A stretch of 30,333 nucleotides of DNA from NCBI GenBank assembly GCA_964458565.1, contig CAYWJO010000025.1, forward strand, positions 1 through 30,333. The letters run 5' to 3'. This stretch comes from an uncultured archaeon. GTDB taxonomy: Archaea > Asgardarchaeota > Thorarchaeia > Thorarchaeales > Thorarchaeaceae. Below, in pieces: positions 1 through 9,347 of the stretch. The position numbers were made by a program, and so were the translations under genes. The notes under the pieces were generated by a model. It worked only from the letters and a program-made list of their open reading frames with translations, had not been told where the DNA came from and did not search any database. Position 1 is the stretch's first letter. Every line of letters begins with the position of its first letter.

Positions 1-19
1 TCCGATTATAGCAGGAGCA

Positions 20-934
20 ATGGCAAGAATATCTAATCCCGAGTTTGTCGCGGCAGTCAGTAATGCTGGAGCCTGTGCTGTATTAGCCAGTGCAAATTAC
101 AAAACTCCTGATGATCTGCGTGATGCAATCAAGAGAACTCAATCCCTTACAAACCAACCATTTGCAGTAAACATCAATTTGTTCCCTGCTTTGATGCCTC
201 ATGACAAGCGAGAAGATTATGTGGACGCCACATTAGCTGAGGGTGTGGAAATCATTGAAACAAGTGGTCACAAGGCTCCAGAAGCTTTAGTTCCAAAATT
301 CAAGAACAGCGGTGCTATATGGATTCACAAGTGTGCTGGAGTAAGGTACGCGTTAAAAGGAGCATCCCTAGGTGCTGATATTGTTACGGTTGTTGGATAT
401 GAGAATGGTGGAGCTACTGGGGTTCTGGATATAGGGACGATGGTAATGACTCCATCCGTAGTTGATGCTCTAGACATTCCTGTAATTGCTGGGGGTGGAA
501 TAACAGATGGCAGAGCTGTTGCTGCAGTCTTAGCCCTAGGTGCGGAAGGAGTAATTATGGGCACAAGGATGATGGCCACAAAGGAATGTCCCATTCATGA
601 TAGTCTAAAACAGGCTTTTGTCAACGCAACAGAAACTGATACTGTTTTGGCGTTGCGTTCTGTTGGAAACACCCACAGACTGTGGAATAACAAAGCAGCA
701 CAGAACGTACTCGAATTAGAAGCTCAAGGAGCCGCCCTATTCCAGCTCATTCAGGCAGCCTCTGGAGAGAAGGCTCAGGAGATGTACAGAAACGGAGATA
801 TTGACCTTGGAGTAGTAGCTTGCGGTCAAGGTGTAGGTCTAGTCAAAGATATTCCCACTGTAAAGGAATTACTGGATAGAATAATGAGTGAGGCTGAGGA
901 CACAATATCTAGACTTCATAGGAGATTCAGTTAG
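20..934 (+). CDS. Nitronate monooxygenase / FabK-like FMN-dependent TIM-barrel oxidoreductase (5' end outside the window)
   Basis: The frame is open to the window edge (PIIAGAM...). Motifs AAVSNAG, PFAVNI, GYENGGA, PVIAGGGITDGR and GAEGVIMGTR are typical of NMO/FabK. Confidence 0.88.
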   Translation: MARISNPEFVAAVSNAGACAVLASANYKTPDDLRDAIKRTQSLTNQPFAVNINLFPALMPHDKREDYVDATLAEGVEIIETSGHKAPEALVPKFKNSGAIWIHKCAGVRYALKGASLGADIVTVVGYENGGATGVLDIGTMVMTPSVVDALDIPVIAGGGITDGRAVAAVLALGAEGVIMGTRMMATKECPIHDSLKQAFVNATETDTVLALRSVGNTHRLWNNKAAQNVLELEAQGAALFQLIQAASGEKAQEMYRNGDIDLGVVACGQGVGLVKDIPTVKELLDRIMSEAEDTISRLHRRFS

Positions 935-972: not shown

Positions 973-997
973 TGGTGGGTGAGGAGGGATTTGAACC
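973..997 (-). repeat. Orphan tRNA 3'-end fragment (T-arm + acceptor 3' strand + CCA), att-like scar
   Basis: Reverse complement is GGTTCAAATCCCTCCTCACCCACCA. No D-arm or anticodon arm is present upstream. Confidence 0.75.
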
Positions 998-1032
998 GTA
1001 AGTTCCAAATTCGTATAGGATAGGATGAAATT

Positions 1033-1560
1033 ATGGATGAGCGGATGGTTGAGCTGAAGGATAGCAGGAAGGTAACTCTTAGACTGTTGGAAGTCAGTGA
1101 TAGAGATCAACTACTAGATATGTTTTCAACAATGTCAGATAAAGCTCTTGAGTGGGGGATGCCTCCTTATGCAAAAGAAACGATTGACCGTTGGATGAGC
1201 AACATTGAGAAACTCATTCCACTGATAGCCATCTTTAACGAGAAGATTGTAGGATATGCTTCTGTATTCAGGCATACACACCCGAGAGAGAAGGGGGTGA
1301 GTGATATGGGTATCTATCTGCATCAGGACTTCCATGGTGTCGGACTTGGGACAGCCATGACCGAAACCGTTCTCTCCATCGCAAAGGAACAGGGATTGCA
1401 CAGAATTAGTCTACATGTAGCGGAAGACAATATTGCTGCAGTGAAATTGTACAAGAAACTTGGTTTCATTATCGAGGGCACAATGCGTGATGCGTACTAT
1501 GGGGTGGATGGAAAATATCACAATATGCTTGTGATGGGAATAGTGTTCGGTGGGGACTGA
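1033..1560 (+). CDS. GNAT family N-acetyltransferase
   Basis: Acetyl-CoA motif YLHQDFHGVGLG and C-terminal LHVAEDNIAAVKLYKKLGFIIEG. Confidence 0.9.
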   Translation: MDERMVELKDSRKVTLRLLEVSDRDQLLDMFSTMSDKALEWGMPPYAKETIDRWMSNIEKLIPLIAIFNEKIVGYASVFRHTHPREKGVSDMGIYLHQDFHGVGLGTAMTETVLSIAKEQGLHRISLHVAEDNIAAVKLYKKLGFIIEGTMRDAYYGVDGKYHNMLVMGIVFGGD

Positions 1561-1575
1561 TACAGAAATAAATAA

Positions 1576-1598
1576 TGGCGGGCCAGGAGGGATTTGAA
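1576..1598 (-). repeat. Orphan tRNA 3'-end fragment, att-like scar
   Basis: Reverse complement is TTCAAATCCCTCCTGGCCCGCCA, 20/23 identical to the 3' end of the tRNA-Lys at 3442-3518. Confidence 0.8.
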
Positions 1599-1743
1599 TG
1601 AATTCATTTATGGAAATATTAGTTAAATCACCAAATAAGGATTCTATCATATCGCGTTTCTGTTACTGCATTATCGTATATATAATAAAAAAATTAGTTT
1701 GATTTGAGAAAAAATTAGACCTATTAGAAAGCAGGTACAATAT

Positions 1744-2844
1744 ATGCTGAAGGGTATTGGAATGTACTTACTACACAGAAGATTGTATCTAGCAATGTGT
1801 GTTTCATTAATATTATCCATTGCATCTGTTTATTCAGCGGTGCTTTTTTCGAATGTATATTTTGGAACAGAAAGTGCTGTTGGTATTTTACCGGGAATAG
1901 ATGTTTCAAATTCATCTTTTGCCAGTATCGCTGAGAACTCTGCACCTTCTGATCTAGCAGTATATGATATTCCATATGAAATTAGAAGTGAAAGACCTTT
2001 TGTGATAGAGGCGAATCTACCAGGAAATGCAACGATAAGTGAAGGAGCTGCTGGATCATATGCAAGTACTTTCATTGAGGGCGTTTTTCCGGAAGAAGTA
2101 GCAAACCAGCTTGTGGTCGATTATATAACAACAAAGCTTCAGAATCATGGTGTTCTTCCGAGATGGAGTGTCACGTTTAGAAATTCTACAATAGACAGAC
2201 CAAATATAGAATCGACTGTTTTTATAAATGCAATATCAGGAGCAGTCATTGGATATTTGGGTGAACCAATTCTAAAGAGCAATCCAATCAATAATACAAC
2301 AGATGCCGAAACATACGCAATTGATGTACTAGACTATTTCGGATTCGTAATTCCGTTACATGCGCGGTACCAAATTGAGAATTATTCGAATTTGAACACT
2401 ATGATATATTCATTGAGATTTTACGCGACTGTAAATGGTGTCCTTGTAGATCCTGACTTTGGCTCGCTAAGGATTCAAATTGATGGAGAGAACGGTGGTC
2501 TGAGATATATGATATTAGAGTGGATGAATATACAAGAGATTCCTAGAGAAGGGATAATCTCTTCAAATAGATTCATTCAACATGCGACGCTGTCATTGGA
2601 GGCAATTCATTGGGGGCCTCCATTAAAGATGCAGCTGGTCTGGTTAGAGAAGGATTATGCTACAGGTGAGATGCTGTACGATGCATTTACTGGAGAATTA
2701 ATTGAGTACCGACCATATCTTGGAGATCCTGTACATAATACATCAATATTACTAATCACTCCCGTTGCAAGTACTTTGGGTTTTGCAGCGCTCACATATT
2801 TAATTGGTAAGAAATTCTTAATCAAGAAACACAGCTTAGATTAA
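1744..2844 (+). CDS. Membrane-anchored extracellular protein with PepSY/YcdB-YcdC-like repeats
   Basis: Hydrophobic helices at both ends. Repeated motifs FINAISGAVI, IQIDGENGGL and YDAFTGELI. Many N-X-S/T sequons. AT-rich. Confidence 0.6.
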   Translation: MLKGIGMYLLHRRLYLAMCVSLILSIASVYSAVLFSNVYFGTESAVGILPGIDVSNSSFASIAENSAPSDLAVYDIPYEIRSERPFVIEANLPGNATISEGAAGSYASTFIEGVFPEEVANQLVVDYITTKLQNHGVLPRWSVTFRNSTIDRPNIESTVFINAISGAVIGYLGEPILKSNPINNTTDAETYAIDVLDYFGFVIPLHARYQIENYSNLNTMIYSLRFYATVNGVLVDPDFGSLRIQIDGENGGLRYMILEWMNIQEIPREGIISSNRFIQHATLSLEAIHWGPPLKMQLVWLEKDYATGEMLYDAFTGELIEYRPYLGDPVHNTSILLITPVASTLGFAALTYLIGKKFLIKKHSLD

Positions 2845-2889
2845 TGAAAATTGAAATGTATTTGATTAATCTGTGGAGGCGAGATTCAC

Positions 2890-3348
2890 TTGGGCGAAAT
2901 AAACGATGAAACAAATGAGCATTATAGAACAATATCTTCAACACTTAAAGGAAAAACACTGAGAGTATATTGGTTTATTTTGAAGAATCCAAAGACAACT
3001 AGCCTTCGAGAGATTCAAAATGGTGCGAATTTATCCAGTCCAAGTTTGGCCACTTACCATCTGGATAAGCTTATCGAACTTGATCTTGTTAAGAAAGATA
3101 CGCACGGATTCTTCCACCTTAAGCAAGATGTCAAAGTTGGTGTTCTCCGCTTGTTCATGGGATCAGGGAGATTACTTGTCCCACGCTTTCTTTGTTACGC
3201 TGTTTTCTATTCAGCAATGCTCCCTATGTTCCTTCTCTTTATTCCCTTTATATTCGGTCCTATCACACTAATTCTGATGTTTACACTCATATTTGGTGCT
3301 GTAACTAATTGGATTGAAACAATTAAGGCATGGAGAATGGAAATCTAA
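2890..3348 (+). CDS. Membrane-tethered winged-HTH (ArsR-like) regulator
   Basis: SLREIQNGANLSSPSLATYHLDKLIELDLV wHTH followed by two C-terminal TM helices. TTG start. Confidence 0.75.
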   Translation: MGEINDETNEHYRTISSTLKGKTLRVYWFILKNPKTTSLREIQNGANLSSPSLATYHLDKLIELDLVKKDTHGFFHLKQDVKVGVLRLFMGSGRLLVPRFLCYAVFYSAMLPMFLLFIPFIFGPITLILMFTLIFGAVTNWIETIKAWRMEI

Positions 3349-3441
3349 GGCGAACATGGCTGCAACAAAGAAGTTTTCGAATAGATTCGTTTTAAGTGAA
3401 TGAATTGCTCGAGCACTATCCGAGCAGAGAAGAAACAGAGA

Positions 3442-3518
3442 TGGCGGGCCGGGCGGGATTCGAACCCGCGACCAACAAGTTAAGAGCCTGTCGCTCTACC
3501 TAACTGAGCCACCGGCCC
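3442..3518 (-). tRNA. tRNA-Lys (anticodon CTT), CCA encoded, intronless
   Basis: Full cloverleaf GGGCCGG-TG-GCTC-AGTTAGGTA-GAGC-G-ACAGG-CTCTTAA-CTTGT-TGGTC-GCGGG-TTCGAAT-CCCGC-CCGGCCC-G-CCA. Confidence 0.96.
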
Positions 3519-3597
3519 GTGTTTTTGGTTCTGTTCAACTTTTAGTTATAGAGATTTCGGAACACTCCTTAATTCATGATACAAATGCAGTTGGACT

Positions 3598-3753
3598 TCA
3601 GCTAATCCGTCCAAGAACGACACTGAACTGTTTAACGTACATTATGTTTCGGGCTGCATTCACATCAGCATGGTATTGCTCATCACACTCTGAACAGTAA
3701 AAGGACTCTCCACCCTTCTTCTCTGTAGTGGGGGTTTCATCTTCCACTCTCAT
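3598..3753 (-). mobile_element. tnpB: TnpB (IS200/IS605- or IS607-type / Cas12f-like) C-terminal remnant, 51-codon mini-ORF
   Basis: Manual translation: MRVEDETPTTEKKGGESFYCSECDEQYHADVNAARNIMYVKQFSVVLGRIS*. FxCxxC...HADVNAARNI is the Zn-ribbon half plus RuvC-III signature of TnpB. Confidence 0.8.
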
Positions 3754-3823
3754 ACCTAGCTCCCTACAGACATGTCAAGCCTGAGAAACCCATGCCGAGT
3801 TCACCATCCAAAGGTGAGAACTC
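3722..3823. ncRNA. Putative structured RNA or element end (three stems + pseudoknot)
   Basis: Stems at 3797-3802/3818-3823, 3769-3774/3791-3796 and 3722-3728/3764-3770. Crossing pair GGGTTTC 3732-3738 / GAAACCC 3785-3791. Confidence 0.4.
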
Positions 3824-3892
3824 AACCTATGTCGCAAGCCATATAACAAGGGTGAATCTAGCGACGGGTGTTCACTACTAGGAGTGTAACCT

Positions 3893-5215
3893 TTGAGCGA
3901 CCATAAGAAAGTTTACGATCAAATCTTCGATTTATTAGAAAAACATGATAAATGGATGAGTAACACCATCAATCTCATCGCCTCGGAGAATGTGAGTTCA
4001 CCAGCAGTCAGATCAGCAATAGTGAGTGACTTTAGAGACCGCTATGCTGAGGGCTGGCCTGGTGAGAGAGTCTATGCAGGGTGCAAGTACATCGATGAGG
4101 TTGAGATAATCTGCATGAACCTTGCAAAGAAGATGTTCAATGCAGAGTTTGCGGATGTTCGACCTATATCAGGTGTTGTTGCAAACCTGATGATGTACAC
4201 TGCAGCAATGGAACCAGGTGAGAGGATGATGGCACTCTCAATTGCGCATGGAGGACACATATCTCATGCAAGAGCAAACCTTGGAGGTACAGCAGGACAA
4301 ATCCGAGGGCACAAGGTCCAGAATTGGGTCTTTGATGAGGAGGAGTTTAATATTGATGTAGACGCAAGTATTGACAGAATTAGAAACCTCCAAGAGAAAG
4401 GAGATGAAGTCAAGTTTCTCCTCTTTGGAGGTAGTGTCTTTCCGTTTCCGCACCCTGTCAAGGAATTCAGAAGCCTTGCTGATGAATATGGCATGATTAT
4501 TGGATATGATTCCGCTCATGTTTCAGGACTAATTGCATCGGGTCGATTTCAGGATCCCCTGAGAGAGGGTGCAGATATTGTAACGCTAAGCACTCATAAG
4601 ACACTTTTTGGTCCTCAGCATGGTGTTTGTTTGAGTCGTGCTGAATTTGCTGATAGAATCAAACGCGCAGCCTTTCCAGGGATGATGAGTAATCATCACC
4701 TGCACAATGTAGCAGGACTCGCAGTTGCCCTTGCAGAAATGCTTGAGTTTGGTAAGGACTACACAGGACAGATTCTCAAGAATGCTAAGGCATTAGCGCA
4801 GTCCCTCCACGACCGTGGATTCCAAGTGATTGCTGAACACAAGGGCTTTACAGAGTCACACACGATTCTTGTTGACATAACAGAAACTCCTCTTAAGGAT
4901 GGTAATGTAGTAGAGGAAACACTTGAGGACGCAAACATCATCATTAACAGAAATCTTCTACCTTGGGATATTAAAAGAGGTCGAGATTATAGAACTCCTG
5001 GTGGTATTCGACTAGGGACAAGTGAAACCACAAGACTTGGCATGAAAGAGTCCGAAATGGATGCTATTGCCGAGTTCATCACTAGAGTAGTGATGAAAGA
5101 AGAAGATGTAAAGAAAGTTGCAGCTGATGTTGCCGAATTCAAGAAGGACTACCAGAAAGTCCATTATGCATATGATACTGAAACAGAAGCTTATGCACAT
5201 CTAAGATTCAGATAG
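3893..5215 (+). CDS. glyA: Serine hydroxymethyltransferase
   Basis: INLIASEN, RYAEG, HGGHISH, PLP-lysine motif STHKT..GPQHG, GIRLGT. TTG start after GGAG. Confidence 0.96.
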   Translation: MSDHKKVYDQIFDLLEKHDKWMSNTINLIASENVSSPAVRSAIVSDFRDRYAEGWPGERVYAGCKYIDEVEIICMNLAKKMFNAEFADVRPISGVVANLMMYTAAMEPGERMMALSIAHGGHISHARANLGGTAGQIRGHKVQNWVFDEEEFNIDVDASIDRIRNLQEKGDEVKFLLFGGSVFPFPHPVKEFRSLADEYGMIIGYDSAHVSGLIASGRFQDPLREGADIVTLSTHKTLFGPQHGVCLSRAEFADRIKRAAFPGMMSNHHLHNVAGLAVALAEMLEFGKDYTGQILKNAKALAQSLHDRGFQVIAEHKGFTESHTILVDITETPLKDGNVVEETLEDANIIINRNLLPWDIKRGRDYRTPGGIRLGTSETTRLGMKESEMDAIAEFITRVVMKEEDVKKVAADVAEFKKDYQKVHYAYDTETEAYAHLRFR

Positions 5216-8846: not shown

Positions 8847-9347
8847 ATGTTGTCAAAGTACATTGTAGAACTACATACTATTGGAAAAGACTACACAGGT
8901 CAAATGCTCAAGAATGCCAAGGCATTAGCACAGTCCCTCCATGACCGTGGATTCCAAGTGATTGGAGAGCATAAGGGCTTTACTGAATCTCATACAATCA
9001 TGGTGGACTTAACTGAAACTCCACTCAAAGATGGCAGCAATGTCGAGGAAACACTTGAAGATGCTAATATAATAATAAACCGAAATCTTCTATCTTGGGA
9101 CAAGAAACGTGGTCGAGACTATAGAACCCCAGGTGGCATTCGGCTGGGTACAAGCGAAACCACTCGGCTCGGAATGAAAGAATCAGAGATGGATGCCATT
9201 GTAGAATTTATTACCAGAGTTGTGATGAAGGAAGAGGATGTCAAGAAAGTAGCTGCAGATGTTTCTGAGTTTAAGAAAGATTATCAAAAGGTACACTATG
9301 CATTCGATACAGAAACAGAAGCCTATGCGCACCTTAGATTCATGTAG
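8847..9347 (+). pseudogene. glyA: 5'-truncated glyA (C-terminal 154 aa, lacks the PLP lysine)
   Basis: From GKDYTGQ (8883) it differs from the intact GlyA C-terminus at 12 of 154 aa. The first 12 aa are unrelated. Confidence 0.9.

Follow-up and report, generated by a model that had tools for sequence, protein, structure and literature searches.

What brings three tRNA 3′ ends together in a row, all facing the same way and each close behind a protein-coding gene, when only one of them belongs to an intact tRNA gene? We examined this question in a stretch of 30,333 nt of DNA (hereafter the window) from an uncultured thorarchaeote, which begins at the first base of contig CAYWJO010000025.1 (C25) of the metagenome-assembled genome (MAG) GCA_964458565.1 (3.73 Mb, 41% G+C). 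Our analysis makes it probable that we see here one end, the tRNA-proximal one, of a gene-cassette array which is anchored at tRNA-Lys(CTT), is common to Thorarchaeota and was built by serial insertion, and the window is a short, partly decayed instance of this Thorarchaeota-wide locus.

The intact tRNA-Lys(CTT) gene lies at 3442–3518 on the minus strand, and downstream of it are two co-oriented fragments of a tRNA-Lys tail, both made up of T-loop, 3′ T-stem strand, 3′ acceptor strand, discriminator and CCA. Fragment 2 (1576–1598, minus strand) duplicates the 3′ exon of the multi-intron tRNA-Lys(CTT) native to the family and has no mismatch to the 19-mer consensus of that family, and fragment 1 (973–997, minus strand, from T-loop to CCA) is an older, diverged copy with three mismatches. 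They share 20/23 and 17/23 positions, respectively, with the end of the intact gene, and the sequence around fragment 2 (1575–1599) matches a tRNA-Lys 3′ end in a related genome (G017, contig C119) at 100% of its 25 nt. The first-pass annotation of this DNA, which was made from the sequence alone, had described three co-oriented tRNA 3′ ends on the minus strand, and this is borne out by a degenerate 23-mer covering the three tails which occurs three times in the window, always on the minus strand, compared with 0.00 in 100 dinucleotide-preserving shuffles. It had also placed each tail shortly after a plus-strand stop codon, and the CCA ends are indeed 39, 16 and 94 nt past the stops at 934, 1560 and 3348. 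No Rfam family but tRNA matches at the tails.

The genes on either side are conserved landmarks, with a nitronate monooxygenase gene (NMO), tRNA-Lys and a serine hydroxymethyltransferase gene (SHMT) found in synteny across the family (e.g. genomes G001 and G016 and loci L044 and L102). Between NMO and tRNA-Lys lies a hot spot that varies in content from genome to genome: in G016 the tRNA 3′ end is 41 nt past the NMO stop with no gene between, in G001, G005, G022 and the host genome the gap is filled by 1.3 to 2.5 kb of unrelated genes, and the array content can be wholly different between genomes in which the NMO DNA is 93–94% identical. We compared 66 related loci anchored on NMO (75–89% identity), and in about 20 of the ~35 nearest to the NMO of the window, which are mostly from Thorarchaeota, between 1 and 8 co-oriented Lys-type tails follow NMO. 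One of these tail arrays is in a complete chromosome (CP070761, L048), and those of L062 and L069 are among the long ones. No Lys-type tails were found at the more distant NMO loci among the 66, which are labelled as other Asgard lineages. A further tail lies ~165 nt upstream of NMO on contig C39 of the host genome and at L041, L044, L052, L061, L064 and L103, so that the array extends left of NMO, as the first-pass annotation had suspected, and NMO itself is flanked by fragments in several relatives.

These relatives also clarify the nature of fragment 1. In those with an empty site the tRNA 3′ end takes its place (41 nt past the NMO stop in G016 as above, and 34 nt at L047), and the NMO-adjacent fragment of L052 differs from it by one mismatch. 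We had considered that fragment 1 might be the displaced end of a tRNA-Thr(CGT), which it matches with one mismatch in two genomes of the same phylum, and rejected this as its place beside NMO and the L052 orthologue identify it as a decayed Lys-type tail.

The segments between tails (n = 47) are 310–3053 bp long, with a median of ~0.8 kb, and a map of gene families places mostly one gene in each. Recurrent unit families encode GNAT acetyltransferases, Rce1-like CAAX proteases, VIT1, DinB_2, S-adenosylmethionine (SAM) methyltransferases, NosD/beta-helix proteins, PCMT, PEMT-like proteins and small proteins of no known family, and these differ in order and copy number between genomes. The methyltransferase unit, for example, comes before the Rce1-like unit in L045 and after it in L061, a unit encoding a 127-residue protein occurs twice in L062, and the GNAT unit occurs twice in L074. 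Such inversions of order and duplications mean that deletions from one ancestral order are insufficient to explain the arrays. The cassette genes are found on either strand, with each family holding its own orientation relative to the fragments. In the window, the GNAT gene (1033–1560, plus strand; PF00583, 1.3e-18) forms a one-gene cassette of 580 bp between fragments 1 and 2, and fragment-bounded GNAT units are also found at L041, L061, L069 and L074. To its left, NMO (2–934, plus strand; PF03060, 6.7e-60) is truncated at its 5′ end by the start of the contig; both genes had been correctly named in the first-pass annotation.

The boundaries of the units are exact. In five MAGs the similarity between methyltransferase units starts at one tail and stops within the next, and outside the unit is unrelated DNA, which is the NMO 3′ end in two of the MAGs and other cassettes in three. 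A comparison of L047 and L044, in which the NMO DNA is 94% identical, provides an empty and an occupied site: in L047 the tRNA directly follows NMO, while in L044 the NMO flank is followed by a tail, two cassettes and a second tail that is continued by the orthologous intron and the remainder of the tRNA, so that the duplication matches the 20-nt 3′ exon exactly. Divergence of the tails also rises with distance from the tRNA (permutation P = 0.0002 for 54 tails in 17 arrays, a value which is overstated because arrays of related genomes are not independent and kin share fragments), and the window fits this gradient with no mismatches in fragment 2 and three in fragment 1. Taken together, the modular boundaries, the empty and occupied pair and the decay gradient support the serial arrival of units at the tRNA end, followed by reshuffling and loss. 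The sequence comparisons thus support the view, already put forward from the window alone, that small cargo-only cassettes have been captured repeatedly in an array which appears to grow at the tRNA end; gene order at the locus is not invariant among relatives, and the insertions or deletions that distinguish them are bounded by the fragments.

The point at which the tails begin relates to the structure of the native gene. Native tRNA-Lys(CTT) genes of the family have 0 to 3 introns of 29–31 nt at positions 31/32, 38/39 and 44/45 and, in the T arm, alternatively at 53/54 or 56/57 (intron-bearing genes, including those with T-loop introns, are present at L044, L047, L050, L051, L055, L056, L057, L059 and L102). 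It should be noted that ARAGORN and the Rfam tRNA model overlook most of the multi-intron tRNA-Lys genes of the relatives. When 60 tails were picked solely by their last 11 nt, their identity to the tRNA was 0.80–0.95 from position 58 on, bar one polymorphic T-stem position, and 0.57–0.72 at positions 54–56, with a purine at position 57 in 0.90 of the tails, and from position 53 upstream it was at background level. A single sharp crossover in the T-loop was rejected as this unbiased profile has two steps. The first-pass annotation was right to place the break of both fragments at or next to the T-loop, though not in implying one crossover point, as the tails fall into two 5′-end classes (53/54 and 56/57) which correspond to the two places where the native gene can have a T-arm intron. 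With this match, the break in the T-loop can be regarded equally as an exon boundary and as a crossover. The coincidence fits an exchange limited to the stretch common to genes with different introns, and it also fits introns having been selected at a recombination site. Randau and Soll reportedly suggested in 2008 that introns protect tRNA genes from integration; at L044, the array adjoins a tRNA which keeps the 56/57 intron, and the intron is therefore not plainly protective.

The intact tRNA of the window, which is the only one found in it by ARAGORN (Rfam score 71.2 bits), differs from fragment 2 and from the native genes in its 5′ acceptor strand and T stem and in having no introns, and its 5′ T-stem strand pairs incompletely with the T-stem strand of fragment 2, leaving one mismatch. 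Its nearest kin are the intronless tRNA-Lys genes of L025 (G020), L026 (G003) and L117 (G006), with another intronless tRNA-Lys(CTT) found at L067, and all four adjoin a full-length gene for a TnpB/Cas12f-like protein of 716–718 residues (L025:4065–6215 on the minus strand, L026:1721–3868, L117:5523–7679 and L067:8217–10373; a further gene of this family is at L061:5719–7872). OrfB_IS605 and zinc-ribbon (TNB) domains are the marks of a TnpB ORF. Full-length copies in relatives match PF07282 (2.3e-14) and, weakly, PF01385. The window retains only a C-terminal remnant of such a gene (3598–3837, minus strand; PF07282, 4.4e-06), which covers the last ~81 residues with one in-frame stop and has 52% identity to residues 639–718 of the L067 protein by tblastn. 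The remnant lies upstream of the tRNA and shares its sense, a layout unlike that of the relatives. Judged by its sequence, the intact tRNA is of a replacement type linked to TnpB and is not the ancestral multi-intron anchor. Since the TnpB-linked type differs from the fragments over its whole length, the third unit (1843 bp, between fragment 2 and the tRNA) is not a simple att × att product, and the last event at the locus was probably the replacement of the whole native tRNA-Lys, of which only the 3′ exon survived as fragment 2. A promoter-like block upstream of the tRNA (3545–3562, minus strand), seen as invariant alignment columns, is near-invariant across loci of both the native and the replacement type.

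The ~716-residue TnpB family is multi-copy in 41/86 family genomes. In ~28 copies (at loci among L120–L149) a conserved sequence just past the stop codon is followed by a slot which varies from copy to copy, the layout that would be expected of an omega-RNA scaffold and guide. The slot of L120, L121 and L122 corresponds to positions 4–19 of tRNA-Lys, and a whole tRNA-Lys with 3–4 positions different from the slot is found 30–120 nt away in antisense. A segment resembling the tRNA 5′ end also lies just past the TnpB stop in L026, L061 and L067, and is more diverged in L026 and L067. By these features the Lys-linked TnpB has the appearance of a nuclease directed against one allele of tRNA-Lys and accompanied by a mismatched spare copy. 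Isolated 5′ pieces are confined to the TnpB slot and never occur in rows; nested homing predicts rows of 5′ pieces, and we therefore rejected it as an origin for the rows of tails. A search of the host genome for tRNA-Lys 5′-end matches (≤3 mismatches) found them at chance level only. We also note a giant open reading frame (ORF) of ~1800 codons with no Pfam match which is transcribed divergently from the Lys-linked TnpB (L118:893–6298 on G020:C69 and L119:3133–8532 on G003:C54), with partial homologues in the host genome (C79:1650–5120 and C47:24601–25971, the latter between a tRNA fragment and tRNA-Pro). This recalls the giant genes of aloposons which have been reported beside tRNA sites (PMC8813620).

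A search for the enzyme behind the array yielded no candidate. Pfam scans found no tyrosine recombinase (PF00589) or other recombinase among the ORFs of the window, nor an integrase among 30 representative array ORFs including the recurrent families (the singleton ORFs of relatives being only partly scanned). The host genome has one weak PF00589 match (43 bits, and 39 bits to the XerA model compared with a cut-off of 220) on contig C53 (L105:1306–2406, minus strand), far from any array, and has neither a serine recombinase (PF00239) nor a Y1 transposase (PF01797), by which an IS200/IS605 Y1 transposase or a serine recombinase was rejected as the engine. A PF00589 match is found in 29/86 family genomes and is missing from 57/86. 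We had also thought of the 127-residue cassette protein as a hidden recombinase, but it has no Pfam match even at E 5, and by eye its Cys-x-x-Cys motif gives it the look of a small redox-type protein. The tails keep the 3′ strand of the T stem mostly without the 5′ strand, and as this leaves a mean of only 1.9/5 pairs, compared with 1.2 at a control offset, they are not attC-like hairpin sites.

From these results we can suggest how the array would be built. Units of ~0.3–3 kb, usually with one accessory gene, would be inserted at the tRNA 3′ tail, and each insertion would add one copy of the last 20–25 bp (the T-loop or its 3′ part, through CCA plus 1–2 nt). Newcomers would enter beside the tRNA and push older units outward, where their tails decay, and recombination between tails would delete, duplicate and reorder units. 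In the window, NMO and fragment 1 would represent the old end of the array and the GNAT gene with fragment 2 a younger unit, and the 1.84-kb unit would have arrived with, or preceded, the replacement of the whole native multi-intron tRNA-Lys by an intronless copy of the type that travels with a TnpB element of OMEGA type (obligate mobile element-guided activity), now a remnant. The repeats and their orientation, the modularity and exact boundaries of the units, the polarity of decay, the turnover seen among close relatives and the replacement tRNA with its TnpB link are all direct observations; the reaction we infer from them would be a conservative recombination within the ~20-bp tail which is catalysed in trans. 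The likeliest agent would be an integrase brought by transient elements, and the main alternative a break-induced, homology-guided exchange on the tail. Several of the results above weigh against serial insertion of this kind. The difference between L044 and L047 may be an insertion or a deletion, the relatedness of the arrays inflates the support for the decay gradient, and the two 5′-end classes are not what one sharp crossover would leave. Added to these are the recombinase results, with none in the window or the representative array ORFs, one weak and distant match to PF00589 in the host genome and no PF00239 or PF01797, and two thirds of the family genomes without PF00589, which leave the trans-acting tyrosine recombinase of the first-pass annotation as an assumption only.

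Other explanations account for part of the data. The array might have been produced by nuclease-driven replacement in which an RNA-guided TnpB cuts the resident tRNA-Lys and repair copies in the spare tRNA with its cargo, using the tail as the right homology arm and leaving the old tail behind. The guide-like slots with tRNA-Lys sequence and the mismatched tRNA-Lys nearby are what this would require, and the confinement of 5′ pieces to the slot looks as if the 5′ part had been overwritten in each round; the TnpB-linked type of the window tRNA with its imperfect pairing to fragment 2, the whole displaced tRNA-Lys copies in or beside the arrays of L050, L051 and L102, and the fragment ends at exon boundaries, expected under homology-limited exchange, all agree with it. 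However, most arrays have no adjoining TnpB, the slots of this multi-copy family are mostly unrelated in sequence, an arm of 20–25 bp is very short for homologous repair, and the movement of single units without a tRNA between positions is not explained by it. The TAM (transposon-associated motif), the omega-RNA and the cleavage are presumed only, and the remnant in the window, by its sense and its place upstream of the tRNA, departs from the layout of the relatives, so that we regard this explanation as unlikely. We would give no greater weight to an integrase-free form of cut-and-rescue, in which TnpB would force a swap of the tRNA for a resistant spare bearing cargo and the exchange would be limited to the 3′ exon, with the T-arm introns marking its limits and each round adding a further tail of 20–25 bp.

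The rows might instead be ordinary tandem scars, the leftovers of larger integrase-bearing elements which decayed in tRNA-Lys, with descent and deletions but no cassette mobility. Direct repeats of tRNA 3′ ends, and tandem accretion that leaves decayed remnants, are well documented (bioRxiv 10.1101/2020.12.28.424599), and the decay gradient and the patchy presence of tyrosine recombinases (29/86 family genomes) fit such a history. It would not lead us to expect units that are nearly all single-gene, with no integrase gene or fragment among those examined, or one unit with identical boundaries and different neighbours in five genomes; nor can deletion alone invert order and duplicate units, and the complete turnover of cargo at 93–94% NMO DNA identity is a further difficulty, which makes scars slightly less likely again than replacement by a nuclease. 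The fragments might also be functional, either as 3′ exons of split or trans-spliced tRNAs or as selected primer-binding or terminator-like signals, and their starts at intron positions 53/54 and 56/57 and the resemblance of a fragment, read on the plus strand, to a site complementary to the tRNA-Lys 3′ end are suggestive of this. The genome nonetheless has an intact tRNA-Lys(CTT) and no matching 5′ exons, the tails decay with distance and some copies have a mutated CCA end, the cassette genes lie on both strands with no uniform relation to a transcript, and no Rfam family besides tRNA matches, all of which makes a function for the pieces very improbable. A primer-binding site in the style of retroelements was rejected because about half of the cassette families are on the other strand.

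The preferred reading, a cassette array built by serial insertion at the tRNA tail, can be compared with several known systems. Integrons are the textbook gene-capture platform of bacteria, and include sedentary chromosomal arrays and attC clusters without an integrase. They have in common with the Thorarchaeota arrays the rows of small, mostly single-gene, cargo-only cassettes between short repeats, the variation in order and content, the apparent entry of new units at one end, and the flavour of the cargo (GNAT and DinB-like proteins, methyltransferases and small membrane proteins). They differ in having an attC hairpin where we find a tRNA tail, an IntI gene at the array where we find none adjoining, an anchor of attI and the Pc promoter where we find a functional tRNA gene, and co-oriented cassette ORFs where we find both orientations. 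The integron-like character claimed in the first-pass annotation can thus be kept for exchangeable single-ORF cassettes bounded by sites, but not for the hairpins, the integrase or the orientation. Integrons have also been reported in Archaea, in a paper which deals with attC arrays (PMC9668308).

In geometry the arrays match tandem accretion at tRNA genes, of which the cis-mobilisable elements of streptococci are an example, and She et al. are said to have described integration of the SSV type with ‘gene capture’ in archaea in 2001. In the tycheposon islands of Prochlorococcus, elements are parted only by a partial tRNA and further partial tRNAs are scattered (bioRxiv 10.1101/2020.12.28.424599). 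Co-oriented partial tRNA repeats, outward displacement, integrase-less remnants and the location on one side of the tRNA are shared with our arrays, whereas our units are ten-fold smaller and nearly all single genes, the repeat is 20–25 bp and ends at intron positions, two thirds of the family genomes have no tyrosine recombinase, and in ~20 arrays we saw neither an integrase nor a module for replication or excision. The hallmark modules of tycheposons (a tyrosine or small serine recombinase, replication genes and PICI-like genes) are thus not matched, with no PF00589 in the arrays and no PF00239 in the genome.

OMEGA systems combine TnpB and the omega-RNA of IS200/IS605-type elements, and free-standing homing endonucleases such as the SegB type of phage T4 lie beside a resistant copy of their target. 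Points of likeness to these systems are the 3′ flank of our TnpB genes, with its conserved scaffold end and variable slot, and the Lys-linked slot matching the tRNA-Lys 5′ part with a mismatched whole tRNA-Lys beside it. In contrast, the protein of ~716 residues is nearly double the usual size of TnpB and has no TnpA, the target would be an essential tRNA gene for which a spare is supplied, and the window keeps only the last ~81 codons in a layout unlike the relatives. The likeness to the split and multi-intron tRNAs of archaea lies in the native tRNA-Lys(CTT) with its up to three introns, those in the T arm being where the fragments begin, but the fragments are not exons in use.

We found nothing comparable to the cassette array in a search of the literature on Asgard archaea, and the Asgard mobile-element paper does not describe it. 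New here are the coincidence with intron boundaries, the clean pair of an empty and an occupied site, and the replacement tRNA linked to TnpB. A whole family of archaea maintains, at a tRNA gene, rows of single-gene modules which can be exchanged, using sites of 20–25 bp and with no recombinase in sight, and the accessory genome of these close relatives of the eukaryotes thus has a dedicated and fast-turning storage site. The link to intron boundaries or to TnpB could explain both how the array is built and where archaeal tRNA introns are placed. Were cut-and-rescue true, it would represent a new route to a cassette array, and an essential RNA gene would be under a selfish drive in the prokaryotes most closely related to eukaryotes.

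Tail fragments are also found elsewhere in the host genome, in which tRNA genes are mostly intron-bearing and many are overlooked by standard finders. Many of the 3′-end-like matches outside called tRNAs proved to be true multi-intron tRNAs missed by ARAGORN and Rfam, and ~10 genuine 3′ fragments were left (two on C25, one on C39, two on C19, one on C45, four in a row on C32 and one on C47). As all of these are beside tRNA genes or in rows, such fragments are not a background feature of the genome, and the background frequency away from tRNAs that would have counted against the first-pass annotation was not seen. Nor are the rows confined to tRNA-Lys: two fragments lie behind tRNA-Ala(GGC) at C19:46173–48323, one behind tRNA-Ser(TGA) at C45:40–1092, and four co-oriented fragments, two Ala/Pro-like and two Phe-like, at C32:30418–38323, with a single tRNA 3′ fragment at C47:24214–24236.

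Contig C39 ends (26000–32680) with a double-GNAT gene, three tandem GNAT genes of which the middle one is apparently broken, the Lys-type tail (32093–32117) and then the opening 465 bp of a second copy of NMO. We rejected the joining of C39 to the start of the window because this copy overlaps window positions 1–423 (423 bp) with only 87% identity, and there must be two copies or two strains; the C39 end is either a paralogous array or from a second strain in the bin. On the same contig, ARAGORN calls a tRNA-Asp with a 2389-nt ‘intron’ (C39:11472–13951), inside which is a TnpB-type gene (a frame of 409 residues, with the match at C39:12247–12423), which raises the possibility that an OMEGA element has split a tRNA gene here.

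The unit adjoining the tRNA opens with a gene for a membrane-anchored protein of 366 residues (1744–2844, plus strand) which belongs to no family above threshold; the PepSY-like label given to it in the first-pass annotation has a single match behind it, which is sub-threshold (E 0.036, 14.8 bits, with a cut-off of 24). It is followed by a gene for a 152-residue protein (2890–3348, plus strand) that had been labelled as a helix-turn-helix (HTH) protein with a membrane segment; its C-terminal half is hydrophobic, and the winged-helix/HTH match is weak (HTH_20, E 0.0017, under the curated cut-off). No close relative of the 366-residue protein was found by a pattern search of genome contigs, while a family-wide protein search identified distant homologues (27–40% identity) in 26/86 family genomes, always downstream of an HTH gene. 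The two genes form a conserved module at 11 loci of relatives (L106–L116), mostly outside arrays, with the HTH gene (50–60% identity to the 152-residue protein) upstream, and in the window (1744–3348) this order is the reverse of that in 11/11 loci, as if circularly permuted.

On the other side of the tRNA, two relatives (L056:9532–9990 and L057:8282–8680, from G001 and G016) have a conserved ORF for a Cys-rich protein of 132–152 residues and no known family, placed between SHMT and the 5′ side of the native tRNA-Lys. The window lacks this ORF and has the TnpB remnant there. SHMT itself (3893–5215, plus strand; PF00464, 1.1e-81) is the conserved right landmark, and the window contains a partial second copy of its 3′ part at 8881–9342, with 79% identity to 4749–5210.

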